A stretch of 64,000 bases of DNA from Escherichia phage AV116, in sequence record OR352946.1; one strand, 5' to 3'. A program made the translations under genes and the position numbers. How positions within the stretch are numbered: the first letter of the stretch is position 1; each line of letters begins with the position of its first letter. Positions 1 through 51,498 of this stretch are shown here, one piece after another. The notes beneath the pieces were generated by a model. The model did no database searches and had not been told where the DNA came from. It saw only the letters and a list, made by a program, of their open reading frames with translations.

Positions 1-143
1 GTCATAGACCCAATTTCATTACAACGTCCAATACGAGAATCAGTTACGAATTCCGGGTTTTCTAAAATTTCACGATTGACTGCTTTAAATGCGGTTTGAA
101 AATCTGCGGCTTTGATATATTTCATTGTGTTATGTTTTCCCAT
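1..143 (-). CDS. 42: dCMP hydroxymethylase (gene 42-like), N-terminal fragment; gene continues beyond window start
   Basis: Open minus-strand frame from ATG at 141-143 (MGKHNTMKYIKAADF...FVTDSRIGRCNEIGS) runs off the window; resembles T4 gp42 N-terminus and sits where gene 42 lies downstream of 43. Confidence 0.45.
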   Translation of the reverse strand, partial: MGKHNTMKYIKAADFQTAFKAVNREILENPEFVTDSRIGRCNEIGSM

Positions 144-422
144 GTTTACCTCAATACAATTTATTATATACTCAATTCGTAAAGCTTATTTGAATTTCTT
201 GACAATGTTGATATAACGTAAAGCTTCAGCATCGATACTTCCAAGAACACTATGAAGAAATGCGTCAGCGTAGTATTCCAATTGAACAGGTTTCTTTAAT
301 CACTTTAGCCGCTTTAGTTTTAAACAGGCCCATCAGGGCCTTTTTAAGAATTTGTTCGTTAGTGTTCAGTTTAATAGTCAAAATCTCTTCGTTAAGTTTA
401 TAATTAAAAGTTTTTCTAGAAA

Positions 423-1592
423 TCATTCCGGGTACCTCAAAGCGTCATCAGAGTTAGTTATATCAATAATAGATATAGAGTTTTCTGCTAACCCGTTTTT
501 AGATAATTGACGTTTATAATATCTTTCACAATATGTACACGTCGTCCCGCAGATTTCATTAGCACAATCGAAATCTGGATGTCTGAACCACCTTTTTTCT
601 AAAAAGCCATCTAACAAAGAGGTTTCAATATTTACTGTATGTGAAAACTCAGTTTCGTTTTCAAGAGTGAAAATGGTCTCTAAAGGCTTCCACAGTTCTA
701 ACAAATTACCTTCAAACTTTTCAGAAGCGTATGCTTCAAGAACTTTCAAAATGTAGTCTGTGCTACCTGTACGTCCTGAAACTTTGAATTGAGTGATACC
801 AATATCATTATAAAGTTTCAAATCTTGAGGACGAACAAAACGAGTTCTCAACCAGTTAAATGGGTCTGTATCACGAGCTTTAATACAGTGCTGCATAGGA
901 TATCCGTTTAAGGATTTAGCATCATCAGCGGTAACATCAGTACTATGGAAAATATAGCAAGAGTCACGATAGCTACAATGTGTTGTATACCCTTTACCAG
1001 CATTAGAACAGAACTCATTTACAAGAACTTCAAATATTATATTGTTCTTATTGCAAAACTCTGCTGCACGCTTCAGGAAAGAAACTGAACGGTTCTTATG
1101 AATTCCGCAGCAGACCTTTTTGATATTATACTGGTCATGCAAGTATTTGATTTGAGTTACAGCATCGACATGTAGAATTGTTGAAACTTCAATCTCAATG
1201 TCTTTATTGACTTCACGAACAATTTCCATAACAACAGGGTTAGCGATAGTAATACGCCATACGCCTATTGACCAAAGATACTGAACATAATCCTGAATAG
1301 CTTTCTTCTTCCACTCAACTAGTTCTCTTTTTGAACCAGGATTTATCGTGTTGAGTGTATAGTTAAAGCAAATACCTAATTCGTTACAACGTTTAACGTA
1401 GTCTTCTAACATCTTTTTGTCAACGTCAGGAAGCCTAAAATCAGGTCTGGCTGCTACAAAAGCCATTTCTCTTGTAGAGCCATATACTTCGTTTATCAAG
1501 CTATTAGGATAGGTTTTATTGAGCTCTACGATTTTATCAAGAAGAGCTAAATCAAAATTCGTTCCGATTTTAAAAGTATTCATTTTTTGCAT
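423..1592 (-). CDS. cysteine-rich hypothetical protein, candidate Fe-S/TIM-barrel enzyme or DNA sugar transferase of the hypermodification cassette
   Basis: 389-aa ORF with C-terminal CANEICGTTCTYC cluster and further conserved-looking Cys (VCCG, FCSNAG, HCSYRDSC); weak resemblance to U32-type proteins; no T4 counterpart here. Confidence 0.75.
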   Translation of the reverse strand: MQKMNTFKIGTNFDLALLDKIVELNKTYPNSLINEVYGSTREMAFVAARPDFRLPDVDKKMLEDYVKRCNELGICFNYTLNTINPGSKRELVEWKKKAIQDYVQYLWSIGVWRITIANPVVMEIVREVNKDIEIEVSTILHVDAVTQIKYLHDQYNIKKVCCGIHKNRSVSFLKRAAEFCNKNNIIFEVLVNEFCSNAGKGYTTHCSYRDSCYIFHSTDVTADDAKSLNGYPMQHCIKARDTDPFNWLRTRFVRPQDLKLYNDIGITQFKVSGRTGSTDYILKVLEAYASEKFEGNLLELWKPLETIFTLENETEFSHTVNIETSLLDGFLEKRWFRHPDFDCANEICGTTCTYCERYYKRQLSKNGLAENSISIIDITNSDDALRYPE

Positions 1593-1638
1593 CTCGCGTT
1601 AATTGATGCGATGGTTTTTGCAGGTCTTACTTAAATTA

Positions 1639-2040
1639 TTATAGATTCGGTTTATACGATTTAAATGTTTCGAATTCGCCTTTATTCATAAGAGCTTTGA
1701 ATTCGTCAGGACGCATAGCTTTGTCGTCGATAATCCAATCATATACTGGTTTATGTGTTAGCAAATTATGGTACTTCAAGCCAATGTTTGCCAAGTTCTG
1801 AATCAGACTTGGGAGAATGTCAATTGCTATACGTCCAGGACCTACTGACTTCATACCGCGAGCAGTGTAAAGCGTTATGGTATGCCCTGCATCATACAGG
1901 GCATTAATGGCAGACACCATTTCGACGTCTGGTTTGAAGTTCACGTAATCACGATTGTTATTCCACTCTGTTATACAATCATCGACATCAAAACAAAGAT
2001 TAAGCATGTTTTCTACACGGTGCATTAGATTCGTTCCCAT
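1639..2040 (-). CDS. HAD-superfamily phosphatase-like protein
   Basis: 133-aa ORF with N-terminal FDVDDCIT (DxDx[TV] HAD motif I); same operon as the isomerase and nucleotidyltransferase/kinase. Confidence 0.7.
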   Translation of the reverse strand: MGTNLMHRVENMLNLCFDVDDCITEWNNNRDYVNFKPDVEMVSAINALYDAGHTITLYTARGMKSVGPGRIAIDILPSLIQNLANIGLKYHNLLTHKPVYDWIIDDKAMRPDEFKALMNKGEFETFKSYKPNL

Positions 2041-3710
2041 TGATGAGTGATATCGCCACCGATTGGACGATAGGAAACACCAGTTTCTTTATCAGTTAGT
2101 ACCCATTTACCAGGATTTTTTGTAATCAGAGTAGCCGTTACAGGTTCTGCTACGTCATAACTAATAGAGCCGTCCTGAAGTACACGGCCCATGTTACGTA
2201 ATTGCTTAGTCAGAAGTTCCATACCTTTATAATATGCGGCTACCGCTTTAAGTGGATTATTCTTGAAATAACCACCTAATGCAATCCAGATAATTGCCAC
2301 AGCCAAATGATGATATTCATTAAACGAACTCAGCTTTCCATATTTGTAAACTAATGGATTGATGTTAATAGTCACATTACAAGTTGTTTCATCAATAGTA
2401 AACTGTCCCCAGGTCGGATTAGCATTGAATTCATCATAACCTGAAACAGCATAAAGCACTTTAGCTTCATCATACAATTTTGGCCCGTAAATCTTGGTTT
2501 CACCAAAATATCCACGAGGGTCGATAAATTTGACTTCGCCGTTATCAGTAATCATAGTATTACTGAAGTTCGGGTCACCATGAATAACAGAGTACTGTCC
2601 CTGAGAACGGTTATGATAACGAATAAGGTGTTCTAAAGCTTGTTTCAGCATTGGCTTCAGACGTCCAATCTTAGTGTAGTTCACATGTGTGATTTTACCA
2701 AATGAATCAATCAATGGTTGAATGCTTTCACAACGATCAATAACTTTCGTATAGAATTCTTTAGTGAAATCACGACGAACAGTTTCAGGACTTACAAAAT
2801 AAGTGTCTGTGCTGAATTTCAGTGCATCTAAAATTGCATCAACAATTTGTGGACGAGCAAGACTTGATTTGGATTTAATATATTCAAATGCCGGCTTACC
2901 TTTAATGCGTTCCATTTCAAAGTTATTTTCATTAACAGAAACTAACTGAGGAACTGAATCTGATTTCACTTTCAAATACCACGAAATCTCATCTTTCTGA
3001 AGAGCTCGACCTTGTTCAGTTAATGCGAATTTAGTTACAGTTTCTTCACCAATTTCAACTGCATTAAAACTACGATTAAGTTCACGAACTTCATGAGCCT
3101 TTTCAAGTTTAGGCATATCACCAAGGTCGATGATATTCATAAGCTCTGATTTATTGAATGCGCCGCTGTAAAGGAATTCTACGAAATCACGTCCTTTGCA
3201 GTATTCATGAATTTCCTCATCGGTAGAACCCATGTAGAATTCCCAGTCTTTGAACTGATAAATTCCTACAACATTACCACCTGTTGAACCTACGTTAGTG
3301 ATATTTTCACCGTCGAAATTATACCGACATTCATCACCCTTAACATAGATTGCGTTAACATTCCAAGACCATGAACCAAAATCAGGAATAATATCACACC
3401 AGTTAACAATTACATTATGGCCATCTAAATCTTTGTGTAATTTAGCAAGAGCATAAGCAGAACCATACGCTTCATCAACTGTACGAATAGTCACATTGAA
3501 CCCTTCTTGCTCACAATAAGCTCGAACAGTTTCAGCAAATTTTGAATGAACTACTACGATAATTTCATCTGCGCCAAGGTCAGAATAAATTGTATACAAA
3601 TTGCTCAGAATAGTGTCTTGTTTATAGTTAACAAGCACCTTAGGAATATGATGCGTTATTGGATACAAACGAGTTGCCAGTCCAGCACCAAGAATAACAG
3701 CTTTTTTCAT
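2025..3710 (-). CDS. bifunctional sugar-1-phosphate nucleotidyltransferase / APH-like sugar kinase
   Basis: 561 aa; N-terminal LGAGLATRL (GxGxxTRL nucleotidyltransferase signature); C-terminal HGDPNFSNTMI and IDPRG, typical of choline/aminoglycoside-type kinases. Confidence 0.8.
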   Translation of the reverse strand: MKKAVILGAGLATRLYPITHHIPKVLVNYKQDTILSNLYTIYSDLGADEIIVVVHSKFAETVRAYCEQEGFNVTIRTVDEAYGSAYALAKLHKDLDGHNVIVNWCDIIPDFGSWSWNVNAIYVKGDECRYNFDGENITNVGSTGGNVVGIYQFKDWEFYMGSTDEEIHEYCKGRDFVEFLYSGAFNKSELMNIIDLGDMPKLEKAHEVRELNRSFNAVEIGEETVTKFALTEQGRALQKDEISWYLKVKSDSVPQLVSVNENNFEMERIKGKPAFEYIKSKSSLARPQIVDAILDALKFSTDTYFVSPETVRRDFTKEFYTKVIDRCESIQPLIDSFGKITHVNYTKIGRLKPMLKQALEHLIRYHNRSQGQYSVIHGDPNFSNTMITDNGEVKFIDPRGYFGETKIYGPKLYDEAKVLYAVSGYDEFNANPTWGQFTIDETTCNVTININPLVYKYGKLSSFNEYHHLAVAIIWIALGGYFKNNPLKAVAAYYKGMELLTKQLRNMGRVLQDGSISYDVAEPVTATLITKNPGKWVLTDKETGVSYRPIGGDITHQWERI

Positions 3711-3751
3711 GTTGAAGTCCTCATTGGTAAGTAGGAGTATTGTACACTATT

Positions 3752-3895
3752 CTAGTTAAAGCATTCATACTTTGCTTGTAGTCCAATCATAATCCATCCA
3801 ATCACAAGTGTTGGAATCATTACCGGAGCCGTTAAGCTCCAGTAGATAGTCATGACAAGCATCAATAGTAAAAGTCCTATTGTTATTGCTTTCAT
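3752..3895 (-). CDS. small hydrophobic protein (47 aa, two predicted TM segments)
   Basis: Below ORF-track cutoff; ATG overlaps the stop of the upstream SIS gene (ATGA); MKAITIGLLLLMLVMTIYWSLTAPVMIPTLVIGWIMIGL. Confidence 0.35.
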   Translation of the reverse strand: MKAITIGLLLLMLVMTIYWSLTAPVMIPTLVIGWIMIGLQAKYECFN

Positions 3896-4527
3896 TGTTC
3901 GCCTCGTAACATGGCACCTAGTGCACCGCCTGGATGGAACTTAAGGAAATCATTAGAGGTAAATCCACGTTCAGACGAAAGGTTGATAGCAAACGTATCG
4001 ATAAGCGCTAACAACAATGTAGTGGACATAGTCGGAGCTAAAGAGTTCTCGTCAACTTCTACCGCGATACCGGTACAGAACGTATAATCAAAAAGAGCTT
4101 CGTATTCTTGTGGAATGTCAGGGTTACAATGTAACAGAATCTGTTTAACCTGAGGACGAATCATACGAAGATGTTTAGCAACACCTATCATTTCTTCAGT
4201 CTTACCAGAACGACTGATGTGAACTAATACATCATTAGGTGCAATAAATCCTGCGTCACCATGAGAATAATGCCCAGTGTTCAAGTACATACTTGGGATA
4301 CCGAGTGAAGCAAAAGTCTCGGAAGCTTTAGTTGCGATATTAGCGTTCTTACCAACACCTGTAATAATTACCCGGCTTTCATAATTACTAAGTCCAGGGC
4401 GTCGAAGAGTTTCTAGAATAGCGTTATAACGAGCAGGGTTTTGACTAATTACTTTAGCCATAGTGGCAAGAGATGAAGCTTGTTTTACGATTGCGTCAAT
4501 AGCGATAGTGATTGGTGTAGTTTTCAT
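3892..4527 (-). CDS. SIS-domain sugar-phosphate isomerase (KdsD/GutQ-like arabinose-5-phosphate isomerase, no CBS domains)
   Basis: 211 aa; GVGKNANIATKASETFASLGIPS...HGDAGFI...VHISRSGKTEE matches the SIS/KdsD phospho-sugar binding pattern. Confidence 0.8.
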   Translation of the reverse strand: MKTTPITIAIDAIVKQASSLATMAKVISQNPARYNAILETLRRPGLSNYESRVIITGVGKNANIATKASETFASLGIPSMYLNTGHYSHGDAGFIAPNDVLVHISRSGKTEEMIGVAKHLRMIRPQVKQILLHCNPDIPQEYEALFDYTFCTGIAVEVDENSLAPTMSTTLLLALIDTFAINLSSERGFTSNDFLKFHPGGALGAMLRGEQ

Positions 4528-4567
4528 ATTTCTCTCATTTAATTAGTTGGCCGTCCTTGGCATTATA

Positions 4568-7279
4568 TCAAAAATCAAACATATCGAACAGAGATGCTTT
4601 CTTCTCGTAATCGAGTTTAGCTGCTGATGTGAATCCTTCAAGTGGTTTAATAAATGTCTTCTCAAGGAGAACAGTGTAGTCCATCCAATGAAGTACATCG
4701 TCTTTAATTAAATCTGTGATTTCAGTACCAGAAGGCCATGCGATACATTTATCACCGAATGGGTTTCCTTCACGTAAAGGCAGAACATATACTTTTTCAC
4801 CTTCTACAACTTGCGGTGCATCGATATTACCTTTGATAGCCCGGTTATACGTCAGAATTCCACGAATATGGAACGGGCATTTAGGACCAGGGAATCCACC
4901 GACATCATATTTAGCAATGTTATTCGCAGAAGATACCGACGCGATGCTAATATAATTCAATTGACGGAATTCTTTTTCAAACTCTTTAAAATATTCTTGT
5001 AATGATTCTTCACCTTCTTGAAGCATACGACGAATACATTCTTTAAGAGCTTTCTGTACTGCTTTAGGGGTCGAAGATTTCTGAGTCTCTAGACCCATGA
5101 TTTTGAGTTTAGGCTCAGCGTAACGAGTGCCTTCCATATCCCACACGTTTAATGCATAACGTTTCTTACCAGTCCAGAATCCACCAATACCTTTAGAACC
5201 GAGCGGAGGACCAGCGATAGCTTCTCGGTCCATGAACATTAAGTGTTGTTTATTGTTCATGTATTCACACATTTCACGGAAACCTCTATCAATAGCTGGT
5301 TCCATACGTTCACGTGCAAACTTATCTAAGAAGTCTACCCAATGGTTGGTATCACGGAATTTAGATTCACCAACCTTATCGATAATTTTATCAGCAGATA
5401 CGTAAATAGAGTCTGTATCACCATAAAGAACGAAAGCTTCACCTTCTGTACCACAAACTTCATTCAGATATTCATTAACTTTACGTTCAATCCACTGTAA
5501 AGCCATTTGCCCGAATGTTGTGATTGCAGTAGCATTACGCAAATCATAATAACGGAACCAAACGTTGCCAAGTGCACCATAAAGTGAGTTGATAAGCAAT
5601 TTACGGTTAATTTGTGCAGTCATACCTGCAACTTCAGTACGTTGAGCTCTAAACAACATTTCATTAAGAGATTTAGCAGACAACTTTTTAATCTTTTCTT
5701 TAATCTCATCACTGAAGTCGAAACGATAATCAACATCTAATGGTTCGTCAATAGAAAGATTAGGATTATGCAATGCCTCTTTAATTATTTCACCATTACG
5801 TTGAGCTGCAAGCATGTAACCTTTATGTTCTTTACGTTGATTAAAGACCTTAGTGATTTCAGTTGGAACTACACCATCACGGTCTTTATAATACATCATG
5901 CCGTTAGGAGAACAACTGTACACATCTGAAGGACGTTCAGCGATTGCGTTAATATAATCATGTAATGGAGCTACTTTAAACGTTCCTGCTATTGTTTCTG
6001 GGCTAATATTCACTTGGCGAATGATGCTTGGATACAGAGATGTAAGGTCGAAACTCATTACATATTTGTATCGATTTGGAATAGGTTCCTTAACAAAAGC
6101 GCCGGGATAAGGTTGAACCGGGTGAGAACGACCTTGTGGAATCACCTTGTTCTGCTCTTTAAGGCTATTAAAAATAATAGCATCCCATGTTTTAATTGGG
6201 CTAAACACAGATTGAATCTGTATCTTAGCATAATAACCCATGTCCAAGCTCAAGTTGATGAACTGACGCTTAGCATCAATTTGCAATACACGATACACGT
6301 CGATAATGTTATAAGAAATATATCGTTGGTGATTGCTTTCACGAAGCTTAGAAATAGGGCCGTCATATTTCAGTTTACCAACGTTCAATTCAAATTCTGA
6401 AATGTAATCCAGAGAATACGACGGTTGATTGGTAAAAGAGAATTTTTTGTAAAGGTCAATGTAATCAAGAACAGAGATACCGAACAATGTAATGATTTCA
6501 CGAGAACCATACATGTTTTCGATAACTTTAACACGAGTTTTACGATGTGGCGATAAACGTTTCGCAGTAGATTCGCCAAAAATATTCTTGATTCGGTTAT
6601 ACACATATGGAATATCAAATGACTCAACGTTCCATCCGGTTAAAATGACAGGAGTTTTCTGTTGCCAGAAATTGAGATATTCCATCAATAATTCTTTTTC
6701 GTTATCGAACGGCATATAAATGATTTTATCGATAATTTCAGATGGAACTTCATCACCACCTTGTTCTTGAAGCTTAGCAGCGATTTCAATAGACCATTCT
6801 TCTACATTACCATACGGAGAATTCAATAGATCAAATACGTAGAACCTGTCGTCAATTGAGTCATAATGGGTGATAGCATCAATAGGATGCTTTGCTTGTG
6901 CCGGCTCAGGGAACCCGTCCGGAGATGTTACTTCGATGTCGAAGTTAGCCACACGAATTTTTGTATGGTCGTATTTGATTTCATAGTTATAAGTGTCAGA
7001 CAAATACGCCAATTTGAAATCGTCCATGCCAAGTGCTTCAAGTCCGATATCTTCCATGCGTTTAATCCATTGGGAGGCATCACGCATATTAGCGAACAAC
7101 TTACGAGTACACGGCTTACCGTAGATATCGAAATATTTCGTAGCCTGACTTTCTGGACAATGAGCAAACAGTGATGGTTTATATTCTACTTCACGAGTAC
7201 GTTCACGGCCATTAGAATCGATGTAACGTTCAAAAATTGAATCACCAATCTGTTCAACCGTTAAGTAAAATTCTTTCAT
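4568..7279 (-). CDS. 43: DNA polymerase (family B) gp43
   Basis: 903 aa; recognisable T4 gp43 sequence with exonuclease and polymerase motifs (YGDTDS); flanked by regA-62-44-45 as in T4. Confidence 0.97.
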   Translation of the reverse strand: MKEFYLTVEQIGDSIFERYIDSNGRERTREVEYKPSLFAHCPESQATKYFDIYGKPCTRKLFANMRDASQWIKRMEDIGLEALGMDDFKLAYLSDTYNYEIKYDHTKIRVANFDIEVTSPDGFPEPAQAKHPIDAITHYDSIDDRFYVFDLLNSPYGNVEEWSIEIAAKLQEQGGDEVPSEIIDKIIYMPFDNEKELLMEYLNFWQQKTPVILTGWNVESFDIPYVYNRIKNIFGESTAKRLSPHRKTRVKVIENMYGSREIITLFGISVLDYIDLYKKFSFTNQPSYSLDYISEFELNVGKLKYDGPISKLRESNHQRYISYNIIDVYRVLQIDAKRQFINLSLDMGYYAKIQIQSVFSPIKTWDAIIFNSLKEQNKVIPQGRSHPVQPYPGAFVKEPIPNRYKYVMSFDLTSLYPSIIRQVNISPETIAGTFKVAPLHDYINAIAERPSDVYSCSPNGMMYYKDRDGVVPTEITKVFNQRKEHKGYMLAAQRNGEIIKEALHNPNLSIDEPLDVDYRFDFSDEIKEKIKKLSAKSLNEMLFRAQRTEVAGMTAQINRKLLINSLYGALGNVWFRYYDLRNATAITTFGQMALQWIERKVNEYLNEVCGTEGEAFVLYGDTDSIYVSADKIIDKVGESKFRDTNHWVDFLDKFARERMEPAIDRGFREMCEYMNNKQHLMFMDREAIAGPPLGSKGIGGFWTGKKRYALNVWDMEGTRYAEPKLKIMGLETQKSSTPKAVQKALKECIRRMLQEGEESLQEYFKEFEKEFRQLNYISIASVSSANNIAKYDVGGFPGPKCPFHIRGILTYNRAIKGNIDAPQVVEGEKVYVLPLREGNPFGDKCIAWPSGTEITDLIKDDVLHWMDYTVLLEKTFIKPLEGFTSAAKLDYEKKASLFDMFDF

Positions 7280-19623: not shown

Positions 19624-20094
19624 TTAATCATGTTTCCACACCCCATCGGTATTTGACCAAAGTCGCTGATTATCTGATCCTCGCCACAGTTTTTTGGTCG
19701 GAAGATTTTTCTCATACTTCCCATCAATAATAACATCAACATATTTAAGCATTTCTAGTTGTTTAATATCTTCAAACTTATATCCTGTCCACAACCAAAT
19801 GCTTTTATTGGGATAAAGATTTTTTACTGTTTGAACAATGCAATGAATAACATCTCGGTTATCAGGATAGAGAGGGTCACCTCCGGTTATAGTTAATCCT
19901 TCTATATAATCATTATTCAAACATTCAATTAATTGTTCTAGTGTTTCACCAGTGAATGGAATACCATTTCTAGCATTCCATGTTGATTTATTATAACACC
20001 CTTCGCATTTATGCAAACAACCTGTAACGAAAAGAACGACCCTACAACCAGGGCCATTCACAAAATCGCAAGGATAAAATCTATCATAATTCAT
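19624..20094 (-). CDS. nrdG: anaerobic ribonucleotide reductase activating protein NrdG (radical SAM)
   Basis: 156 aa; CLHKCEGCYN (CX3CX2C) near N-terminus; follows nrdD. Confidence 0.93.
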   Translation of the reverse strand: MNYDRFYPCDFVNGPGCRVVLFVTGCLHKCEGCYNKSTWNARNGIPFTGETLEQLIECLNNDYIEGLTITGGDPLYPDNRDVIHCIVQTVKNLYPNKSIWLWTGYKFEDIKQLEMLKYVDVIIDGKYEKNLPTKKLWRGSDNQRLWSNTDGVWKHD

Positions 20095-21908
20095 TGGTGT
20101 TTAACCCTATGCATGATTTCTTTATTTTTACCGAGATTAAATCCGCGTTCGTTCGGATTTCCCAAATAGCCGCATGTTCTTCTTATGGTGTTCATCTTTT
20201 TAGGATCAGTTTCTCCGCAAACTGAACAAACAAATCCATTTTCGGTAGGAGTCATTTCATGAGTACTTCCACATGTAAAACATTTATCTACTGGCATATT
20301 AACACCAAAATAATCTAAATGTTGTGCAGCATAATCCCAGACAGCCTCAAGTCCTTTTAAGTTATTTTTCATATCAGGAAGTTCAACATAAGAAATGTGA
20401 CCACCTGTCGCAATGAAATGATACGGCGCTTCACGAGAAATCTTTTCAAACGGAGTAGTATTTTCTTCTACTGAAACGTGGAAACTGTTAGTGTACCAGC
20501 CTTTATCGGTAACATCTTTTACACTTCCATATTTTTCTGTATCAAGTTTACAGAAGCGATAACAAAGGTTTTCAGCAGGAGTAGAATACAAACTAAAAGC
20601 AAAACCAGTTCTTTCAGTCCACTGTTTAAGATGAGCATTCATTTTAGTTAAAATTTCTTGTCCAATATCACGACCGACAAGAATATTCAATTCATGAATA
20701 CCGATGTATCCTAAAGACACTGAACTTCTACCGTTTTTAAATAGCTCAATTATATCGTCATCAGGTTTAAGACGAACCCCGAATGCACCTTCTTGGTAAA
20801 GAATAGGAGCAACAGTCGCTTTAACTCCTTTTAAGGAACTAATTCTACACATCAAAGCTTCAAAACACAGGTCCATTCGTTCATTGAATAATTCAACAAA
20901 TTTCTGTTCATTGAACTGTGTTCCAATATAAGAATCTAATGCGATACGAGGAAGATTCAGTGTTACAACGCCGAGATTATTACGACCGTCAAGAATTTCA
21001 TTTCCAGTTGAATCTTTCCATACGCTCAAGAAACTACGGCAACCCATCGGAGAAACTGGAACTGAAGAACCGGTAATAGCTTTATTATTCTTAACTGAAA
21101 TAATGTCAGGATACATTCTTTTGCTTGCACATTCTAACGCAAGTTGTTTAATATCATAGTTTGGATCATCTTTATAAAGATTAACACCTTCTTCAAAAAA
21201 CATAACAAGCTTAGGGAAAATAGGAGTTATTCCATCACGTCCAAGGCCTTTAATGCGGTTTTTAAGAATTGCCTTCTGAATCATTCGTTCAGTCCAGTCA
21301 GTTCCCGTACCAAATGTAATTGTCACAAAAGGCGTTTGTCCGTTTGAACTAAAGAGAGTGTTTACTTCATATTCATAAGCTTGGAATGCATCGTATACGT
21401 CTTTTTCTGTTTTAGATTGAGCATAATTCAGAATGTCTGGTATTTGCCATTTTTCTGCATCTTCAACATGTTTAGCGTATGTGCGTTTAACATAAGGAGA
21501 AAGAACTTTATCGACATTCGCAAATGTAGTTCCGCCATACTGGTGTGAAGCAACTTGTGCAGTAATTTGTGCCATAATTGCAGTAGCAACGCCAATAGAT
21601 TTAGGCGTTTCAATTTGAGCATTGCCTAATTTAAATCCATTCTCAAGCATTCCTTTTAAATCTACTAAACAGCAATTAGTAAAAGGCAATGATATACTAT
21701 AATCTAAATCGTGAAAATGAATTAATCCGACATTATGAGCATTTACAATATGGCTCGGAAGAATACTACAAGCGATATGTTTAGAAACAATACCGGCCAT
21801 TAAATCTCTTTTTGTTGGAAAGACACGAGAATCTTTGTTGGCATTTTCGGTATTTAATTCTTTATCTTTATTTGAAATAAAATTTAAAACATCTTTCTCT
21901 AAAGACAT
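20091..21908 (-). CDS. nrdD: anaerobic ribonucleoside-triphosphate reductase NrdD
   Basis: 605 aa, uninterrupted; C-terminal zinc-ribbon cysteines and glycyl-radical region. Confidence 0.95.
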   Translation of the reverse strand: MSLEKDVLNFISNKDKELNTENANKDSRVFPTKRDLMAGIVSKHIACSILPSHIVNAHNVGLIHFHDLDYSISLPFTNCCLVDLKGMLENGFKLGNAQIETPKSIGVATAIMAQITAQVASHQYGGTTFANVDKVLSPYVKRTYAKHVEDAEKWQIPDILNYAQSKTEKDVYDAFQAYEYEVNTLFSSNGQTPFVTITFGTGTDWTERMIQKAILKNRIKGLGRDGITPIFPKLVMFFEEGVNLYKDDPNYDIKQLALECASKRMYPDIISVKNNKAITGSSVPVSPMGCRSFLSVWKDSTGNEILDGRNNLGVVTLNLPRIALDSYIGTQFNEQKFVELFNERMDLCFEALMCRISSLKGVKATVAPILYQEGAFGVRLKPDDDIIELFKNGRSSVSLGYIGIHELNILVGRDIGQEILTKMNAHLKQWTERTGFAFSLYSTPAENLCYRFCKLDTEKYGSVKDVTDKGWYTNSFHVSVEENTTPFEKISREAPYHFIATGGHISYVELPDMKNNLKGLEAVWDYAAQHLDYFGVNMPVDKCFTCGSTHEMTPTENGFVCSVCGETDPKKMNTIRRTCGYLGNPNERGFNLGKNKEIMHRVKHQ

Positions 21909-22720
21909 AATTCTAATTTATCCTTTTGAAATTCTTCGTCTAAATATGGGTTCCAACCCATTTTAAACCTTTTGATGAAATTATCAATTCTAAATTTCGG
22001 TAAATTTAACTCCGCAAAAATAGATGATTTACTTTTAAAATCTGGACCTAAATAATCATATAAAATTTCTGCGTATTTTAACCATAATATATAAGTACCA
22101 GATTTAATTGCGTTCGGAGTTTTCCAAGGTTTTACACCATACATCGGATTTCCACTTCCTTTATGCCTGATAGAAGATGAAATTCCAATTTTAATTTTAG
22201 CTTCCTTTGTATGCGAAAATCCACGATGCGGATTTTCTTTCCAGTATTTTTTAGCAGCTTCTGATATTTTCTTTCTGGCTAAATTAGTATGATGCTTTCC
22301 ATAAAATCCATGATTTTTGCCTTTATTACGATTTCTTTTAATCATGGTTATTGATTGCTTTTCTCTAGTTTCTTTAGAAGGAGAAATACCATATGTCGTA
22401 AATTTGCCATCAGCATATGCTAAATTAAAATACTCTTTATTCCATACATCTTTTTCTATATTCTTTTGAAATTCAGCTTCAATGCTAGTTATTTGTTCAT
22501 CTCCGACTAATTGAAAATATAATATTTCAACTTTCGGCGTTTCTTTCAATAAGGCTTTTTGAAATTCGGAAGATGACGAAGACGAATAATAAAATTTACC
22601 ATTTTTATCAATAATATTCGTTCCATCAAAAGTGCAATTGGTTTTACTTCCAATGTAATAATATGGTGGGGTTTTAGCATTAATTCTATTAATAAATGAT
22701 AGTTTATATACTACATTCAT
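21899..22720 (-). CDS. GIY-YIG homing endonuclease, free-standing
   Basis: VYKLSF...YYYIGSK motif and NUMOD-like NHGFYGKHHT; N-terminus resembles the endonuclease at 10018..10917. Confidence 0.7.
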   Translation of the reverse strand: MNVVYKLSFINRINAKTPPYYYIGSKTNCTFDGTNIIDKNGKFYYSSSSSSEFQKALLKETPKVEILYFQLVGDEQITSIEAEFQKNIEKDVWNKEYFNLAYADGKFTTYGISPSKETREKQSITMIKRNRNKGKNHGFYGKHHTNLARKKISEAAKKYWKENPHRGFSHTKEAKIKIGISSSIRHKGSGNPMYGVKPWKTPNAIKSGTYILWLKYAEILYDYLGPDFKSKSSIFAELNLPKFRIDNFIKRFKMGWNPYLDEEFQKDKLELCL

Positions 22721-36018: not shown

Positions 36019-36380
36019 TATAGACTCTCAGTAAAGGTACGAGCGATAACGTCGCGCTGCTGTTCCGGAGTCAGAGAGTTAAAGCGAACTGCATAACCGG
36101 ATACACGGATGGTCAGCTGCGGATATTTTTCTGGATGCTTAACTGCATCTTCTAGAGTTTCACGACGCAGAACGTTAACGTTCAGATGTTGACCACCTTC
36201 AATTTTAACTTTAGGTTGATGTTCAATTTCAATTTCACGGGCATGCAAACCGTAGAAAATTTCCGGGTCTACAATAGTGTCTTCTTTAAAAGTCTTAGAG
36301 ACAATAATCCGGGCTTGAGTACCATCTTCAAAATAAATAGTGCCTTTATGTGCACCTTCAAGAATTTGATATGCTTTCAT
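36018..36380 (-). CDS. autonomous glycyl radical cofactor (GrcA/YfiD-like)
   Basis: 120 aa; C-terminal [59 protein letters not shown] carries the RVSGYAV glycyl-radical motif. Confidence 0.8.
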
Positions 36381-43545: not shown

Positions 43546-43901
43546 TTTCTACATTCCTTAATAAAGTTTTCGATTGTTTCATTTTCACGTTTAGCTAGAA
43601 GTTCATTATAACTAATCATTTGAGAAGCGTAAATCTTTTTATTTTTCTTGTTATGGTTTATAAAATCGTAGTAAAAATAGACTACAGTACAAAATGATGC
43701 GATGGATGCAAAGGCTTGGGTATACCGTAAGTCCTGCCATTGGTCTGTGAATCCACCAGTGTTCCCTATAAATCCTAACACAACGCCGTCAATAAGAAAT
43801 CCAACTAATCCAAAGGCAAATCCCATGCCAATACTCATAATAAAAATTAGAATGTTCTCACCAAGAGAAGGCCATATGGTTAAGAGTTGAGGCTTTTGCA
43901 T
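43542..43901 (-). CDS. membrane protein, FIxECR C-terminal family
   Basis: 119 aa; TM helices; C-terminus ...IENFIKECRK. Confidence 0.5.
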   Translation of the reverse strand: MQKPQLLTIWPSLGENILIFIMSIGMGFAFGLVGFLIDGVVLGFIGNTGGFTDQWQDLRYTQAFASIASFCTVVYFYYDFINHNKKNKKIYASQMISYNELLAKRENETIENFIKECRK

Positions 43902-44305
43902 CTTATTTCCTTAACGAATTCCATAGCTTCTTCATATTCATACTTTTTAACAGCTTCATCATACTGAGCTTGGGCTTTTGCGCACTGAACTTTCCATTCT
44001 CTTAATCGGGCTCTGTGATGACGGCCTTGGTGCCAATATCCTACCCAATTAATAGGCATTAATAAAAACGGTACAATAAGTGGTGCGACGAACATTAATG
44101 AAAATGCTGCATCAGACGATATAACTTCACTAGAATCTAAAACAGCTCCTATAATCATAAAGATTAAAAATGCTAAAGCTAAAATAGGGCCAAATAATAC
44201 TTCATTTGGGATTAATTTACGCTTGTATTCATACGCCCAGGGCTTACTTGGCATGTATAGGGTTGGCTTTGACATATTCTCTACATTCCATAATAAATTG
44301 CTCAA
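43880..44305 (-). CDS. membrane protein (related C-terminal motif EFVKEIRC)
   Basis: 141 aa; two TM helices. Confidence 0.5.
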   Translation of the reverse strand: MSNLLWNVENMSKPTLYMPSKPWAYEYKRKLIPNEVLFGPILALAFLIFMIIGAVLDSSEVISSDAAFSLMFVAPLIVPFLLMPINWVGYWHQGRHHRARLREWKVQCAKAQAQYDEAVKKYEYEEAMEFVKEIRCKSLNS

Positions 44306-47497: not shown

Positions 47498-47574
<77 letters not shown>

Positions 47575-47577
47575 TAA

Positions 47578-48243
47578 TTAAAATTTCATTTTTCGACCTT
47601 TAAACCATCCTTCTGGAATTGGGTCAGTTTTCTTAATACGTTTAGAAACTTTTTCATCTAATGAATGAATCCACATCATACCAAATTGGGAATTCTTTTC
47701 GCCCTGTTGATGTTTATTTCTGGCGTGAGATTCTTTCATTTTATTAATAGTTTCAAGAGTATGGGTCTTACCCAAGAAAGATTTAGTATTTAAAAATTTC
47801 TCTCTATACTTAGGATTATCCCAAAGCTGTTTAAACCTTTCTGAACCCATTTTACGATATTTTTCTTTAAGGTCTGGGTCGTTCTCAAATCTGGTTTTAA
47901 AAGCAGCAGCCCCTTTTAAGGAAGCTTCTTTCTTTTTATCCAAATATTCTTTAGTGTTTAAATGGTCCCAACCACCTTCACCACCTAATTTCAAATTATA
48001 AACATCAGGGCGCTTTAAAAACTCTTCAGTCACAATATTCTTTTCTGACTCAAACATAGAGGTTTTATCGTCAAAGAACTCTAATATTTCTTTAGAGAAA
48101 TTTTCTATACCATACTTGTCTTGGGCTCTTTTTAATAATTTACCAGAACCCATATATCCATCATCTAAATTTTCGGTAGAATGGGCGCCTATATAGATTT
48201 TATTATTAATTTTATTTGTTATTTTATAAGTGTAATGGAACAT
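47578..48243 (-). CDS. segB: GIY-YIG homing endonuclease (SegB-like) within the tRNA cluster
   Basis: 221 aa; YKITNKINNKIYIGAHS GIY-YIG motif; lies between two tRNA genes as segB does in T4. Confidence 0.75.
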   Translation of the reverse strand: MFHYTYKITNKINNKIYIGAHSTENLDDGYMGSGKLLKRAQDKYGIENFSKEILEFFDDKTSMFESEKNIVTEEFLKRPDVYNLKLGGEGGWDHLNTKEYLDKKKEASLKGAAAFKTRFENDPDLKEKYRKMGSERFKQLWDNPKYREKFLNTKSFLGKTHTLETINKMKESHARNKHQQGEKNSQFGMMWIHSLDEKVSKRIKKTDPIPEGWFKGRKMKF

Positions 48244-48284: not shown

Positions 48285-48356
48285 TGGCCCTGGCTGGTTT
48301 CGATCCAGCTACCTATCAGTTATGAGCTGACAGCTCTCCCATTGAGCTACAGGGCC
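48285..48356 (-). tRNA. tRNA with CAU anticodon (Met, or Ile2 if lysidine-modified); CCA not encoded
   Basis: Manual cloverleaf: acceptor GGCCCTG/CAGGGCC, D-stem GCTC/GAGC, anticodon arm GTCAG-CTCATAA-CTGAT, T-arm GCTGG-ATCGAAA-CCAGC. Confidence 0.85.
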
Positions 48357-50763: not shown

Positions 50764-51498
50764 TTACCTTAAGATTGTTTCAATTTTAGAATAAAGCTCT
50801 TCTAAAGAGCCGTCGTTTGTAATAACTAAATCGCCTTCTTCAATAGGCAACCCAGCTTCTGTAATATGTTTATCAGTGGATTCCGTACCAGAGCGAACCA
50901 CATGAATAACTGTAGCACCCATCGCTCTAGCGGTTTCCATTTCATGGACTTGACGTGTATCGGTTACAACATAGTAATCGAAATCACTTCCAATATAATC
51001 CATATAGTTTAATGCAAAAAGCTTAACCCAATACATACGGTCAAATAAATTAACGACAACATCCGTACCGAGGGCTTGCATAAGACGGCGGATTGACCAT
51101 GTGTCGTTGATATTATTTATAGCTTCACGCAGGGCTTCATATGGTTTAATATCTAGATACGAATATCCACCTTCTAACGATGATAATACTTTAACATTAT
51201 TAATTGGTAAATATTGACTTTGCAAATAAATTAGCGCTTCTTCCAATAATTCAATAACATCCAACTTATTGATATTTAATGGCGTTTCACGGTCATATCC
51301 GATACCTTCAAAGTATTCGTATTTCAACTCTGTGAATACATCAGGATTTTCAGCATGCCTACGTCCCCAGGCTATTGCTAGAGAGTCTTTAATTGGATAT
51401 GCTAATTGGTATTTTACGGATTTAAAGTTTGAATTGATGTAATCAGCAGTAGTGTCTTTACCACTACGTTTGATGCCACTTAAAAAGATTAGCTCCAT
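50764..51498 (-). CDS. 1: deoxynucleoside monophosphate kinase gp1
   Basis: 244 aa; P-loop LSGIKRSGKDTTADYI and extended similarity to T4 gp1. Confidence 0.93.
   Translation of the reverse strand: MELIFLSGIKRSGKDTTADYINSNFKSVKYQLAYPIKDSLAIAWGRRHAENPDVFTELKYEYFEGIGYDRETPLNINKLDVIELLEEALIYLQSQYLPINNVKVLSSLEGGYSYLDIKPYEALREAINNINDTWSIRRLMQALGTDVVVNLFDRMYWVKLFALNYMDYIGSDFDYYVVTDTRQVHEMETARAMGATVIHVVRSGTESTDKHITEAGLPIEEGDLVITNDGSLEELYSKIETILR

Follow-up and report, generated by a model that had tools for sequence, protein, structure and literature searches.

Five co-oriented open reading frames (ORFs) lie on the minus strand at positions 423..4527 of a 64,000-nucleotide (nt) stretch of the genome of Escherichia phage AV116 (OR352946.1; this whole stretch is hereafter the window), where the ORF listing places them directly downstream of the gene of DNA polymerase gp43. 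They form a cassette predicted to activate a pentose for DNA hypermodification, and one of them encodes a cysteine-rich protein of the Peptidase_U32 family (hereafter the U32 protein), which is proposed here as a candidate oxygen-independent pyrimidine hydroxylase. The spacing of the ORFs, with overlaps of 4 nt and 1 nt and otherwise gaps of approximately 40-46 nt, confirms the tightly packed, co-oriented arrangement that an earlier note on this DNA had described, and their GC content (0.35-0.41) is the same as that of the flanks. The cassette is bordered by gp43 on one side and by a thymidylate synthase (TS) homologue on the other, with a sixth small ORF, resembling gp49 of phage RB69, situated between the U32 gene and the TS homologue. 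The genes concerned are the following (lengths in amino acids, aa):

3..143, minus strand: first 47 codons of the TS homologue (RB69 gp48 type, predicted 5-hydroxy-deoxycytidine monophosphate (5-hydroxy-dCMP) synthase), 47/47 identical to RB69 gp48
265..426, minus strand: small ORF equivalent to RB69 gp49 and phrog_8601, 53 aa (PHROGs, comparison with phage JK45)
423..1592, minus strand: cysteine-rich U32-family protein, RB69 gp50, 389 aa (Pfam PF01136)
1639..2025 (listed as 1639..2040), minus strand: HAD-family phosphatase, AfhF or RB69 gp51, 128 aa (PDB 9iqw_A, TIGR01689)
2025..3710, minus strand: bifunctional AfhE, RB69 ORF53_52c, 561 aa (Pfam, NCBIfam, identity to RB69 and HY126)
3752..3895, minus strand: hydrophobic membrane protein, RB69 gp54, phrog_3610, 47 aa (PHROGs)
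3892..4527, minus strand: SIS-domain arabinose-5-phosphate isomerase, RB69 gp55, 211 aa (Pfam SIS, KdsD and KpsF models, PDB)
4568..7279, minus strand: DNA polymerase gp43, flanking landmark
50764..51498, minus strand: deoxynucleoside monophosphate (dNMP) kinase, gene 1, equivalent of RB69 gp159 (Pfam DNMK, E 2.3e-96)

The start of the HAD gene is most likely at 2025 (128 aa) and not at 2040, because residues 6-133 of the listed ORF are 100% identical to PDB chain 9iqw_A (128/128, counted from Met6) and relatives are annotated from the same ATG. For the U32 gene the true start is probably Met4, at window position 1583, as in most homologues. The TS homologue gene continues past the left window edge, the complete gene being present in JK45 and RB69. 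The gp49-like ORF is shortened to 53 aa by one extra A in a short A-run at 291..293, and its full-length form would cover approximately 186..426; it measures 79 aa in JK45 and RB69 and 40 aa as annotated in phage HY126. This extra A could be a sequencing error or could reflect a gene that is decaying in Mosigviruses. A scan of positions 1..4700 for promoters and terminators returned fewer promoter-like sites than were found in shuffled sequences. A sigma-70-like match (TTTAAA-16-TATAAT) is located at 1638..1665 on the minus strand, in the end of the HAD gene and approximately 45 nt upstream of the U32 start.

The first 8 kb of the window are 98-99% identical at the DNA level to approximately 155 Mosigvirus (RB69-like) genomes and, judged by this sequence identity, AV116 is an RB69-like Mosigvirus. 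The proteins of the cassette are overall 97-100% identical to their counterparts in RB69 and HY126, the identical residues being distributed as follows:

gp43: 900/903 with RB69, 900/903 with HY126
SIS isomerase: 204/211 with RB69, 206/211 with HY126
AfhE fusion protein: 555/561 with RB69, 543/561 with HY126
HAD protein: 127/128 with RB69, 128/128 with HY126
cysteine-rich U32 protein: 387/389 with RB69, 385/386 with HY126

The arabinosyl-5-hydroxycytosine systems of HY126 (Afh proteins) and RB69 (gp45-gp55) possess the same gene set in the same order, which in RB69 numbering reads p055 (SIS), p054 (the 47-aa ORF, annotated in RB69 in a shorter 36-aa form), p053 and p052 (AfhE), p051 (HAD), p050 (cysteine-rich protein), p049 and p048 (TS homologue). 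Apart from the frameshift in the gp49-like ORF, no difference of substance separates AV116 from them. The AfhE gene is intact in AV116 but split in the GenBank record of RB69, where ORF053c and ORF052c were shown to be a single 561-residue protein divided by a sequencing error (PMC6024577). The dNMP kinase of the window, 46 kb away from the cassette, is 98.8% identical to the JK45 protein, while the arabinosyltransferase genes lie beyond the left window edge and are present in the near-identical relatives.

The SIS, HAD and AfhE proteins received consistent assignments in Pfam, NCBIfam, PHROGs and the PDB. The SIS protein matches Pfam SIS (E 8.2e-10) and the models for KpsF/GutQ (E 8.8e-32) and KdsD (E 3.8e-30); both of the latter scores stay under the full-length cut-offs because the pair of CBS domains is missing, the protein aligning only to positions 47-202 of the 328-position KdsD model. 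Its PDB matches are solved arabinose-5-phosphate isomerases (3etn, E 9.6e-25; 2xhz, E 2e-18). The HAD protein matches TIGR01689 (E 4.3e-13), in addition to its identity with 9iqw_A, and a Pfam search with it returned no match. In AfhE, residues 3-99 match Pfam NTP_transferase (E 8.4e-10), with further matches to NCBIfam nucleotidyltransferase models, and a C-terminal region at approximately 308-409 gives weak matches to kinase families (E 0.002-0.03). These profile searches place the three proteins in the families that the earlier note had named, including its KdsD-like isomerase and its HAD phosphatase; of its kinase-nucleotidyltransferase fusion both parts are present, in the order nucleotidyltransferase (N-terminal) and kinase-like domain (C-terminal). 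The 47-aa ORF belongs to the phage family phrog_3610, which has no assigned role. Among T4-like loci it was observed only where a SIS gene is present, with phage JS98 as a possible exception (the SIS query gave no match there). Klebsiella phage Marfa (L013; L numbers designate the loci surveyed in this work) and loci L016, L020, L021 and L027 keep AfhE, HAD, U32 and TS homologue genes and have neither the SIS gene nor the 47-aa ORF; such phages presumably use KdsD or GutQ of the host to obtain arabinose-5-phosphate.

It has been described that the DNA of RB69 carries arabinose, in a modification named arabinosyl-hydroxymethylcytosine (arabinosyl-hmC) in 2018, and that the T4 glucosyltransferases are absent from RB69-like phages, no search of the window for them having been made here; the fusion protein and ORF055c were proposed as candidates for the formation of uridine diphosphate (UDP)-arabinose within an eight-gene module between the polymerase gene and uvsX (Thomas et al. 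2018, PMC6024577). Nuclear magnetic resonance (NMR) and mass spectrometry (MS) have since shown the sugar to be ether-linked straight to C5, so that the base is 5-hydroxycytosine (Lee et al., NAR 2026, PMC13326640). In the same study the TS homologue gp48, which binds flavin mononucleotide (FMN), yielded 5-hydroxy-dCMP with 18O incorporated from O2, and the dNMP kinase gp159 of RB69 phosphorylated this product. The sugar route has been demonstrated biochemically for AfhE and AfhF of HY126 by He et al. (Nat Chem Biol 2026), as cited in PMC13326640. According to that citation, the AfhE kinase converts arabinose-5-phosphate to arabinofuranose-1,5-bisphosphate, AfhF takes off the 5-phosphate to give arabinose-1-phosphate, and the nucleotidyltransferase half of AfhE converts the latter to UDP-arabinofuranose.

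Judged by these homologies, the AV116 cassette very probably makes up the half that supplies the sugar donor in the system by which RB69-like Mosigvirus phages hypermodify their DNA with arabinosyl-5-hydroxycytosine, and there is essentially no evidence against this core pathway. The SIS isomerase would form arabinose-5-phosphate from ribulose-5-phosphate, the C-terminal kinase half of AfhE would produce arabinofuranose-1,5-bisphosphate, AfhF would strip the 5-phosphate to leave arabinose-1-phosphate, and the N-terminal nucleotidyltransferase half of AfhE would generate UDP-arabinofuranose. On the nucleotide side, the TS homologue would hydroxylate dCMP using FMN and O2, the dNMP kinase together with host enzymes would convert 5-hydroxy-dCMP to the triphosphate for incorporation by the polymerase, and arabinosyltransferases encoded outside the window would attach one or two arabinoses to the 5-hydroxyl.

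A phage-encoded route from a pentose phosphate to a nucleoside diphosphate (NDP)-arabinose for DNA hypermodification, as put forward in the earlier note, is thus borne out by the protein families and by identity to RB69 and HY126. This prediction was correct but already known, because HY126 has the same cassette; the note had left open whether the pathway had been described, and it had been, as a prediction for RB69 in 2018 (PMC6024577) and with biochemistry for HY126 (He et al., as cited in PMC13326640). The pathway being published for both phages, the cassette itself adds nothing new. Other parts of the prediction need revision. Three of its five genes (SIS, AfhE and HAD) belong to the route, and the 47-aa and cysteine-rich proteins fall outside the published scheme. 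The modified base, given as hmC, is superseded by arabinosylated 5-hydroxycytosine (PMC13326640), and the neighbouring "gene 42", taken for a dCMP hydroxymethylase, is by its 47 visible codons of the RB69 gp48 type, an O2- and FMN-dependent 5-hydroxy-dCMP synthase. The phosphatase, placed before the kinase, acts after it in the published order of isomerase, kinase (1,5-bisphosphate), phosphatase and nucleotidyltransferase, as relayed in PMC13326640.

The system shares its logic with the glucosyl-hmC system of T4 (gp42 and the alpha- and beta-glucosyltransferases), in which a TS-family enzyme likewise provides a modified dCMP that passes through a dNMP kinase and the polymerase before glycosylation after replication, and both phages have this neighbourhood beside gp43. 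T4 takes UDP-glucose from the host and needs no genes for sugar activation, whereas AV116 carries a cassette for it. The T4 base is hmC, made with methylene-tetrahydrofolate, while the base of the RB69-type system is 5-hydroxycytosine, made with FMN and O2 (PMC13326640).

The cysteine-rich protein, RB69p050, is present in PMC13326640 as a table entry only, labelled "sugar or heterocycle reductase" and undiscussed in the text, although the discussion does mention two pathways of RNA pyrimidine hydroxylation, one of which relies on U32 proteins. The AV116 protein matches Pfam PF01136 (Peptidase_U32) at E 7.4e-11 and scores 42.2 bits, the cut-off being 22.4. Its AlphaFold2 model has a mean confidence (pLDDT) of 91, and the top fold match in the PDB is 5d88, the U32 peptidase Mk0906; with the same model, a fold search of a viral library returned only the same protein of another Mosigvirus. 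In searches of the PDB the sequence alone matched nothing, and a profile gave no more than one match at chance level. In a large protein collection 282 homologues were identified, the copies of T4-like phages being 76-87% identical to the query and a large metagenomic group 46-58%. Ten cysteines are invariant in 32 homologues (C161, C180, C195, C206, C212, C236, C343, C348, C352 and C355). When aligned with the four U32 proteins of E. coli, C195 and C206 coincide with the first two cysteines of the cluster site in RlhA, TrhP and UbiU, and C212 and C236 lie in the same region, with a spacing of CX10CX5CX23C. The last four invariant cysteines form a C-terminal motif, C343-X4-C348-X3-C352-X2-C355 (CX4CX3CX2C). 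Among the E. coli paralogues RlhA was the best match by hhalign, at a moderate level (probability 69%, 203 columns).

Characterised members of this family serve hydroxylations that are independent of O2, use prephenate as oxygen donor and involve 4Fe-4S clusters on conserved cysteines. RlhA is required for 5-hydroxycytidine at C2501 of 23S rRNA, TrhP for 5-hydroxyuridine in tRNA (U34), and UbiU/UbiV for O2-independent hydroxylation of the ubiquinone ring; according to the authors of the prephenate work, no in vitro activity assay exists yet for bacterial U32 members. The phage protein shares with RlhA, TrhP and UbiU-UbiV the PF01136 domain, the TIM barrel, conserved cysteines in the region equivalent to that of the 4Fe-4S cluster of UbiU, and a genomic coupling to prephenate supply. 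A further parallel would be the existence of an O2-dependent counterpart for the same product, with TrhO corresponding to TrhP, UbiH/F/I to UbiU/V and, if the proposal holds, the TS homologue to the phage U32 protein. The phage proteins nevertheless constitute a distinct subfamily, approximately 18% identical to the E. coli proteins, which lacks the long C-terminal extensions and domains of RlhA and TrhP, possesses the additional C-terminal four-cysteine motif and, unlike RlhA, TrhP and UbiU-UbiV, is encoded in phage genomes among DNA-modification genes.

The U32 gene is located between the phosphatase and the TS homologue in every T4-like locus surveyed. In Erwinia phage Virsaitis27 the gene after U32, which overlaps it by 4 nt, scores above the Pfam threshold for chorismate mutase type II, and the TS homologue comes next. 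Translational coupling of U32 to a chorismate mutase is a feature of relatives. Chorismate mutase homologues of this type were found in 54 phage records, among the listed cases always beside the TS homologue and, where annotated, a U32 "peptidase". In a local survey of 15 T4-like viral loci that contain U32, a Pfam-validated chorismate mutase was encoded between it and the TS homologue in 13. Prephenate is the product of chorismate mutase. The gp49-like ORF occupying this position in AV116 was considered as a decayed chorismate mutase and rejected, as Pfam and BLASTP searches with it showed no similarity; gp49 homologues moreover adjoin a real chorismate mutase in L017, L022, L025 and L030, which excludes that reading.

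When the U32 alignment was used to scan IMG/VR, 50 loci were recovered, 35 of them not T4-like. Three genes on each side of U32 were searched against Pfam in 23 dereplicated loci, and the matching ORFs comprised thymidylate kinase (7), 3-deoxy-D-arabino-heptulosonate 7-phosphate (DAHP) synthase (5), chorismate mutase (4), DNA polymerase III alpha (4), two families of dUTPase (3 each), SIS (3), deoxycytidylate (dCMP) deaminase (2), uracil-DNA glycosylase (UDG; 2), nucleotidyltransferase (2) and GT47 glycosyltransferase (2). Genes of DAHP synthase, with or without chorismate mutase, adjoin U32 in at least 6 unrelated loci (L029, L041, L042/L044, L046, L054 and L067); those found next to U32 on contigs of uncultivated phages are:

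DAHP synthase fused to chorismate mutase: L041:8411-9430; L044:7302-8354; L046:8332-9384; L054:11085-12200
DAHP synthase alone: L029:9384-10127; L067:11145-11891

The enzyme of entry into the shikimate pathway and the prephenate-forming enzyme thus occur here as auxiliary genes of phages. Genes of SIS and AfhE-like proteins stand beside U32 in nine loci, and an Aat1-like glycosyltransferase is encoded near U32 in thirteen loci. The co-occurrence of U32 with SIS and AfhE-like genes extends to at least seven unrelated phage lineages. A TS-family profile built from five sequences identified the TS homologue in every T4-like locus and in 1 of the 35 other loci within 10 kb, where it is ThyA-like. 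On contigs of huge phages U32 is flanked by dCMP deaminase on one side and an epimerase-like ORF on the other. In L068 the gene after U32 encodes a TAGT-like glycosyltransferase (weak Pfam match); dUTPase/DCD comes next, and UDP-galactopyranose mutase is nearby. On this one contig the U32-TAGT pair would resemble the TET/JBP and TAGT cassettes of phages, in which a hydroxyl is made and then glycosylated. TET enzymes depend on O2 and 2-oxoglutarate, and their substrate is 5-methylcytosine in DNA; unlike them, the phage U32 protein is proposed to need no O2 and to use an unmethylated pyrimidine.

Some of the metagenomic loci show further features. On a 466-kb contig and on relatives of 12-60 kb (L003:7447-9086 and L004:7504-9083) dCMP deaminase precedes the U32 homologue, and thymidylate kinase is encoded nearby, as is a UDG that either adjoins a PHP/DnaE polymerase or is fused to it; these phages may have their own DNA modification built on hydroxypyrimidines. 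In L039:8695-9954 an IS605 OrfB/TnpB (Cas12f1-like) gene is situated between the AfhE-like gene and U32.

The simplest reading of this context suggests that the U32 protein itself provides the 5-hydroxyl through the prephenate-dependent chemistry of its family, because U32 travels with pyrimidine metabolism, glycosyltransferases, sugar activation and prephenate supply and, outside the T4-like phages, does so in loci without the O2-dependent hydroxylase. On the basis of this analysis, a probability of roughly 55% is assigned to its being a pyrimidine 5-hydroxylase that depends on prephenate and not on O2. An Fe-S enzyme of this kind would use prephenate instead of O2 to hydroxylate C5 of dCMP or of cytosine in DNA. 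For RB69-like phages it would be a reserve for gp48 in the absence of O2, in keeping with the NrdD, NrdG and GrcA-like proteins encoded in the window, and in many uncultivated large phages without a TS homologue it would be the sole hydroxylase feeding pyrimidine glycosylation. One prephenate would be spent per hydroxylation, a stoichiometric demand that phage-encoded chorismate mutase and DAHP synthase would cover. A literature search, which did not cover the contents of He et al. 2026 and Mahler et al. 2025, found nothing linking U32, chorismate mutase or prephenate to phage 5-hydroxycytosine. The link between U32 and hydroxylation is probably unpublished, and that it should be both unpublished and correct, with U32 acting as a pyrimidine hydroxylase for DNA, is somewhat short of an even chance.

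Several alternative roles were weighed against this proposal. The U32 protein could act on a sugar or a cofactor, reducing a sugar nucleotide or the flavin of the TS homologue, and would then belong in function with the sugar and cofactor branch. The table label given to RB69p050 by Lee et al. (PMC13326640) points this way, as do the co-occurrence of U32 with SIS and AfhE-like genes across unrelated lineages and the epimerase-like ORFs that follow it in some contigs. AfhE and AfhF alone, however, explain the formation of UDP-arabinose, and U32 adjoins glycosyltransferase and nucleotide-metabolism genes also where SIS and AfhE are absent; its recurring linkage to chorismate mutase and DAHP synthase indicates prephenate, the co-substrate of U32-dependent hydroxylations. 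No sugar reductase is known among the members of the U32 family, and this alternative appears unlikely. Less likely again is an action on host or phage RNA (tRNA U34 or 23S rRNA C2501) that would tune translation during infection, the position in the cluster being incidental. RlhA is the best-matching E. coli paralogue, RlhA and TrhP are the characterised members of the family acting on nucleic acids, and the phage has its own tRNAs; yet the gene is embedded at the same position in every T4-like locus, the protein has no counterpart to the long extensions at the C-terminus of RlhA and TrhP, and the conserved neighbours in unrelated phages are DNA glycosyltransferases, dNMP kinases, dUTPase, dCMP deaminase and DNA polymerase, with no RNA-modification genes among them.

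Three further readings concern the cassette or its annotation. In the route as the earlier note had worded it, the isomerase would be followed by a phosphatase releasing free arabinose, a kinase forming arabinose-1-phosphate and the nucleotidyltransferase, and the product would serve to arabinosylate hmC. The 2018 name of the modification (PMC6024577) agrees with this, and the putative functions in Table 1 of PMC13326640 still include "dephosphorylates Araf5P to Ara" and "phosphorylates Ara to Araf1P". In its text, however, that paper follows He et al. and places the kinase before the phosphatase by way of the 1,5-bisphosphate, and both the ether link at C5 seen by NMR and MS and the use of O2 (18O) and FMN by gp48 (PMC13326640) speak against hmC; no published scheme assigns a step to the U32 or the 47-aa protein. 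This route is accordingly very unlikely. Database labels such as "peptidase" and "collagenase-like protease" would make the U32 protein a collagenase-like peptidase, but they are propagated from the family name, characterised members serve hydroxylation pathways and not proteolysis, and ten invariant cysteines together with the genomic context suit a redox enzyme, so that a peptidase is highly improbable. Annotations as "capsule biosynthesis protein", "KpsF/GutQ" and "phosphoheptose isomerase" would suggest that the cassette makes 3-deoxy-D-manno-octulosonate (KDO) or capsule precursors for the host surface and not for DNA modification. This is scarcely credible: the cassette contains no KdsA, KdsB or capsule polymerase, the isomerase has no CBS domains, the genes stand beside the 5-hydroxy-dCMP synthase and, in relatives, the DNA arabinosyltransferase, and arabinose was found on RB69 DNA.

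A number of observations weigh against the proposed hydroxylase function of the U32 protein. Given O2, gp48 and gp159 of RB69 are enough for 5-hydroxydeoxycytidine in E. coli (PMC13326640). The cysteine spacing CX10CX5CX23C departs from the canonical CX6CX15CX3/4C (in UbiU, CX6CX16CX38C), and profile similarity is weak and uninformative for TrhP and UbiU and just moderate for RlhA. Chorismate mutase is missing from the Mosigvirus locus and from Marfa, two exceptions of 15, and the metagenomic loci were examined over 10 kb on either side only. Furthermore, U32 is missing from Dhakavirus JS98 (E. coli host) and from Acinetobacter phages, which possess the rest of the system. The clusters of Acinetobacter phages DLP3 and DLP1 and of JS98 contain, in a similar order, the AfhE-like fusion, the HAD protein, the TS homologue, a thymidylate-kinase-like gene and glycosyltransferases. 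The SIS isomerase is present in DLP3 and DLP1 as in AV116, while in JS98 an unassigned ORF of 166 aa, orf43, occupies the SIS position and the SIS query gave no match; none of these clusters has the U32 gene or chorismate mutase. As DLP1 and JS98 keep the rest of the system without it, U32 is an accessory element of some lineages only and is not essential.

The distribution of U32 among hosts bears on the same question. U32 homologues, none of them below 80% identity, were found in 221 phage records whose listed hosts are Enterobacterales and Shewanella, with no Acinetobacter, while an AfhE-like gene occurs in 373 phage records, 57 of them from Acinetobacter phages. The absence of U32 from all of these (0/57) agrees with a pattern in which U32 is confined to phages of facultative anaerobes, which gives the hydroxylase proposal weak support. 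Here too there are points on the other side, as this pattern is based on very few independent lineages and the E. coli Dhakaviruses also are without U32. The window itself encodes the activase NrdG (19624..20094, minus strand), the anaerobic ribonucleotide reductase NrdD (20091..21908, minus strand) and a 120-aa GrcA-like glycyl-radical protein (36021..36380, minus strand), and the phage is therefore equipped for anoxic replication.

Several mobile elements were identified elsewhere in the window. A GIY-YIG (Seg-like) homing-endonuclease ORF of 221 aa (47578..48243, minus strand) is located between tRNA-Arg (47498..47574) and tRNA-Met (48285..48356); the same tRNA genes are just 6 nt apart in phage JK45. 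NrdD is one intact gene of 605 aa in AV116, whereas that of JK45 is split around a homing endonuclease of I-TevII type. Upstream of NrdD, a 273-aa ORF with a NUMOD3 motif (21899..22720, minus strand) is probably another mobile nuclease. The homologue of the JK45 "sulfurtransferase" at 43883..44275 gave no Pfam match.

The published hydroxylase of this modification system requires O2, yet the phages replace all of their cytosine, infect bacteria of the gut and carry an anaerobic ribonucleotide reductase. If the proposal is correct, a U32 hydroxylase would explain how the modification proceeds without oxygen as well as the presence of chorismate mutase and DAHP synthase genes in phages, and gut phages would possess an anaerobic route to arabinosyl-5-hydroxycytosine parallel to that of the TS homologue. 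Proteins of the RB69 gp50 type would then be the first hydroxylases of the U32 family to serve DNA, and research on this family would gain its first tractable in vitro substrate, a small soluble nucleotide.

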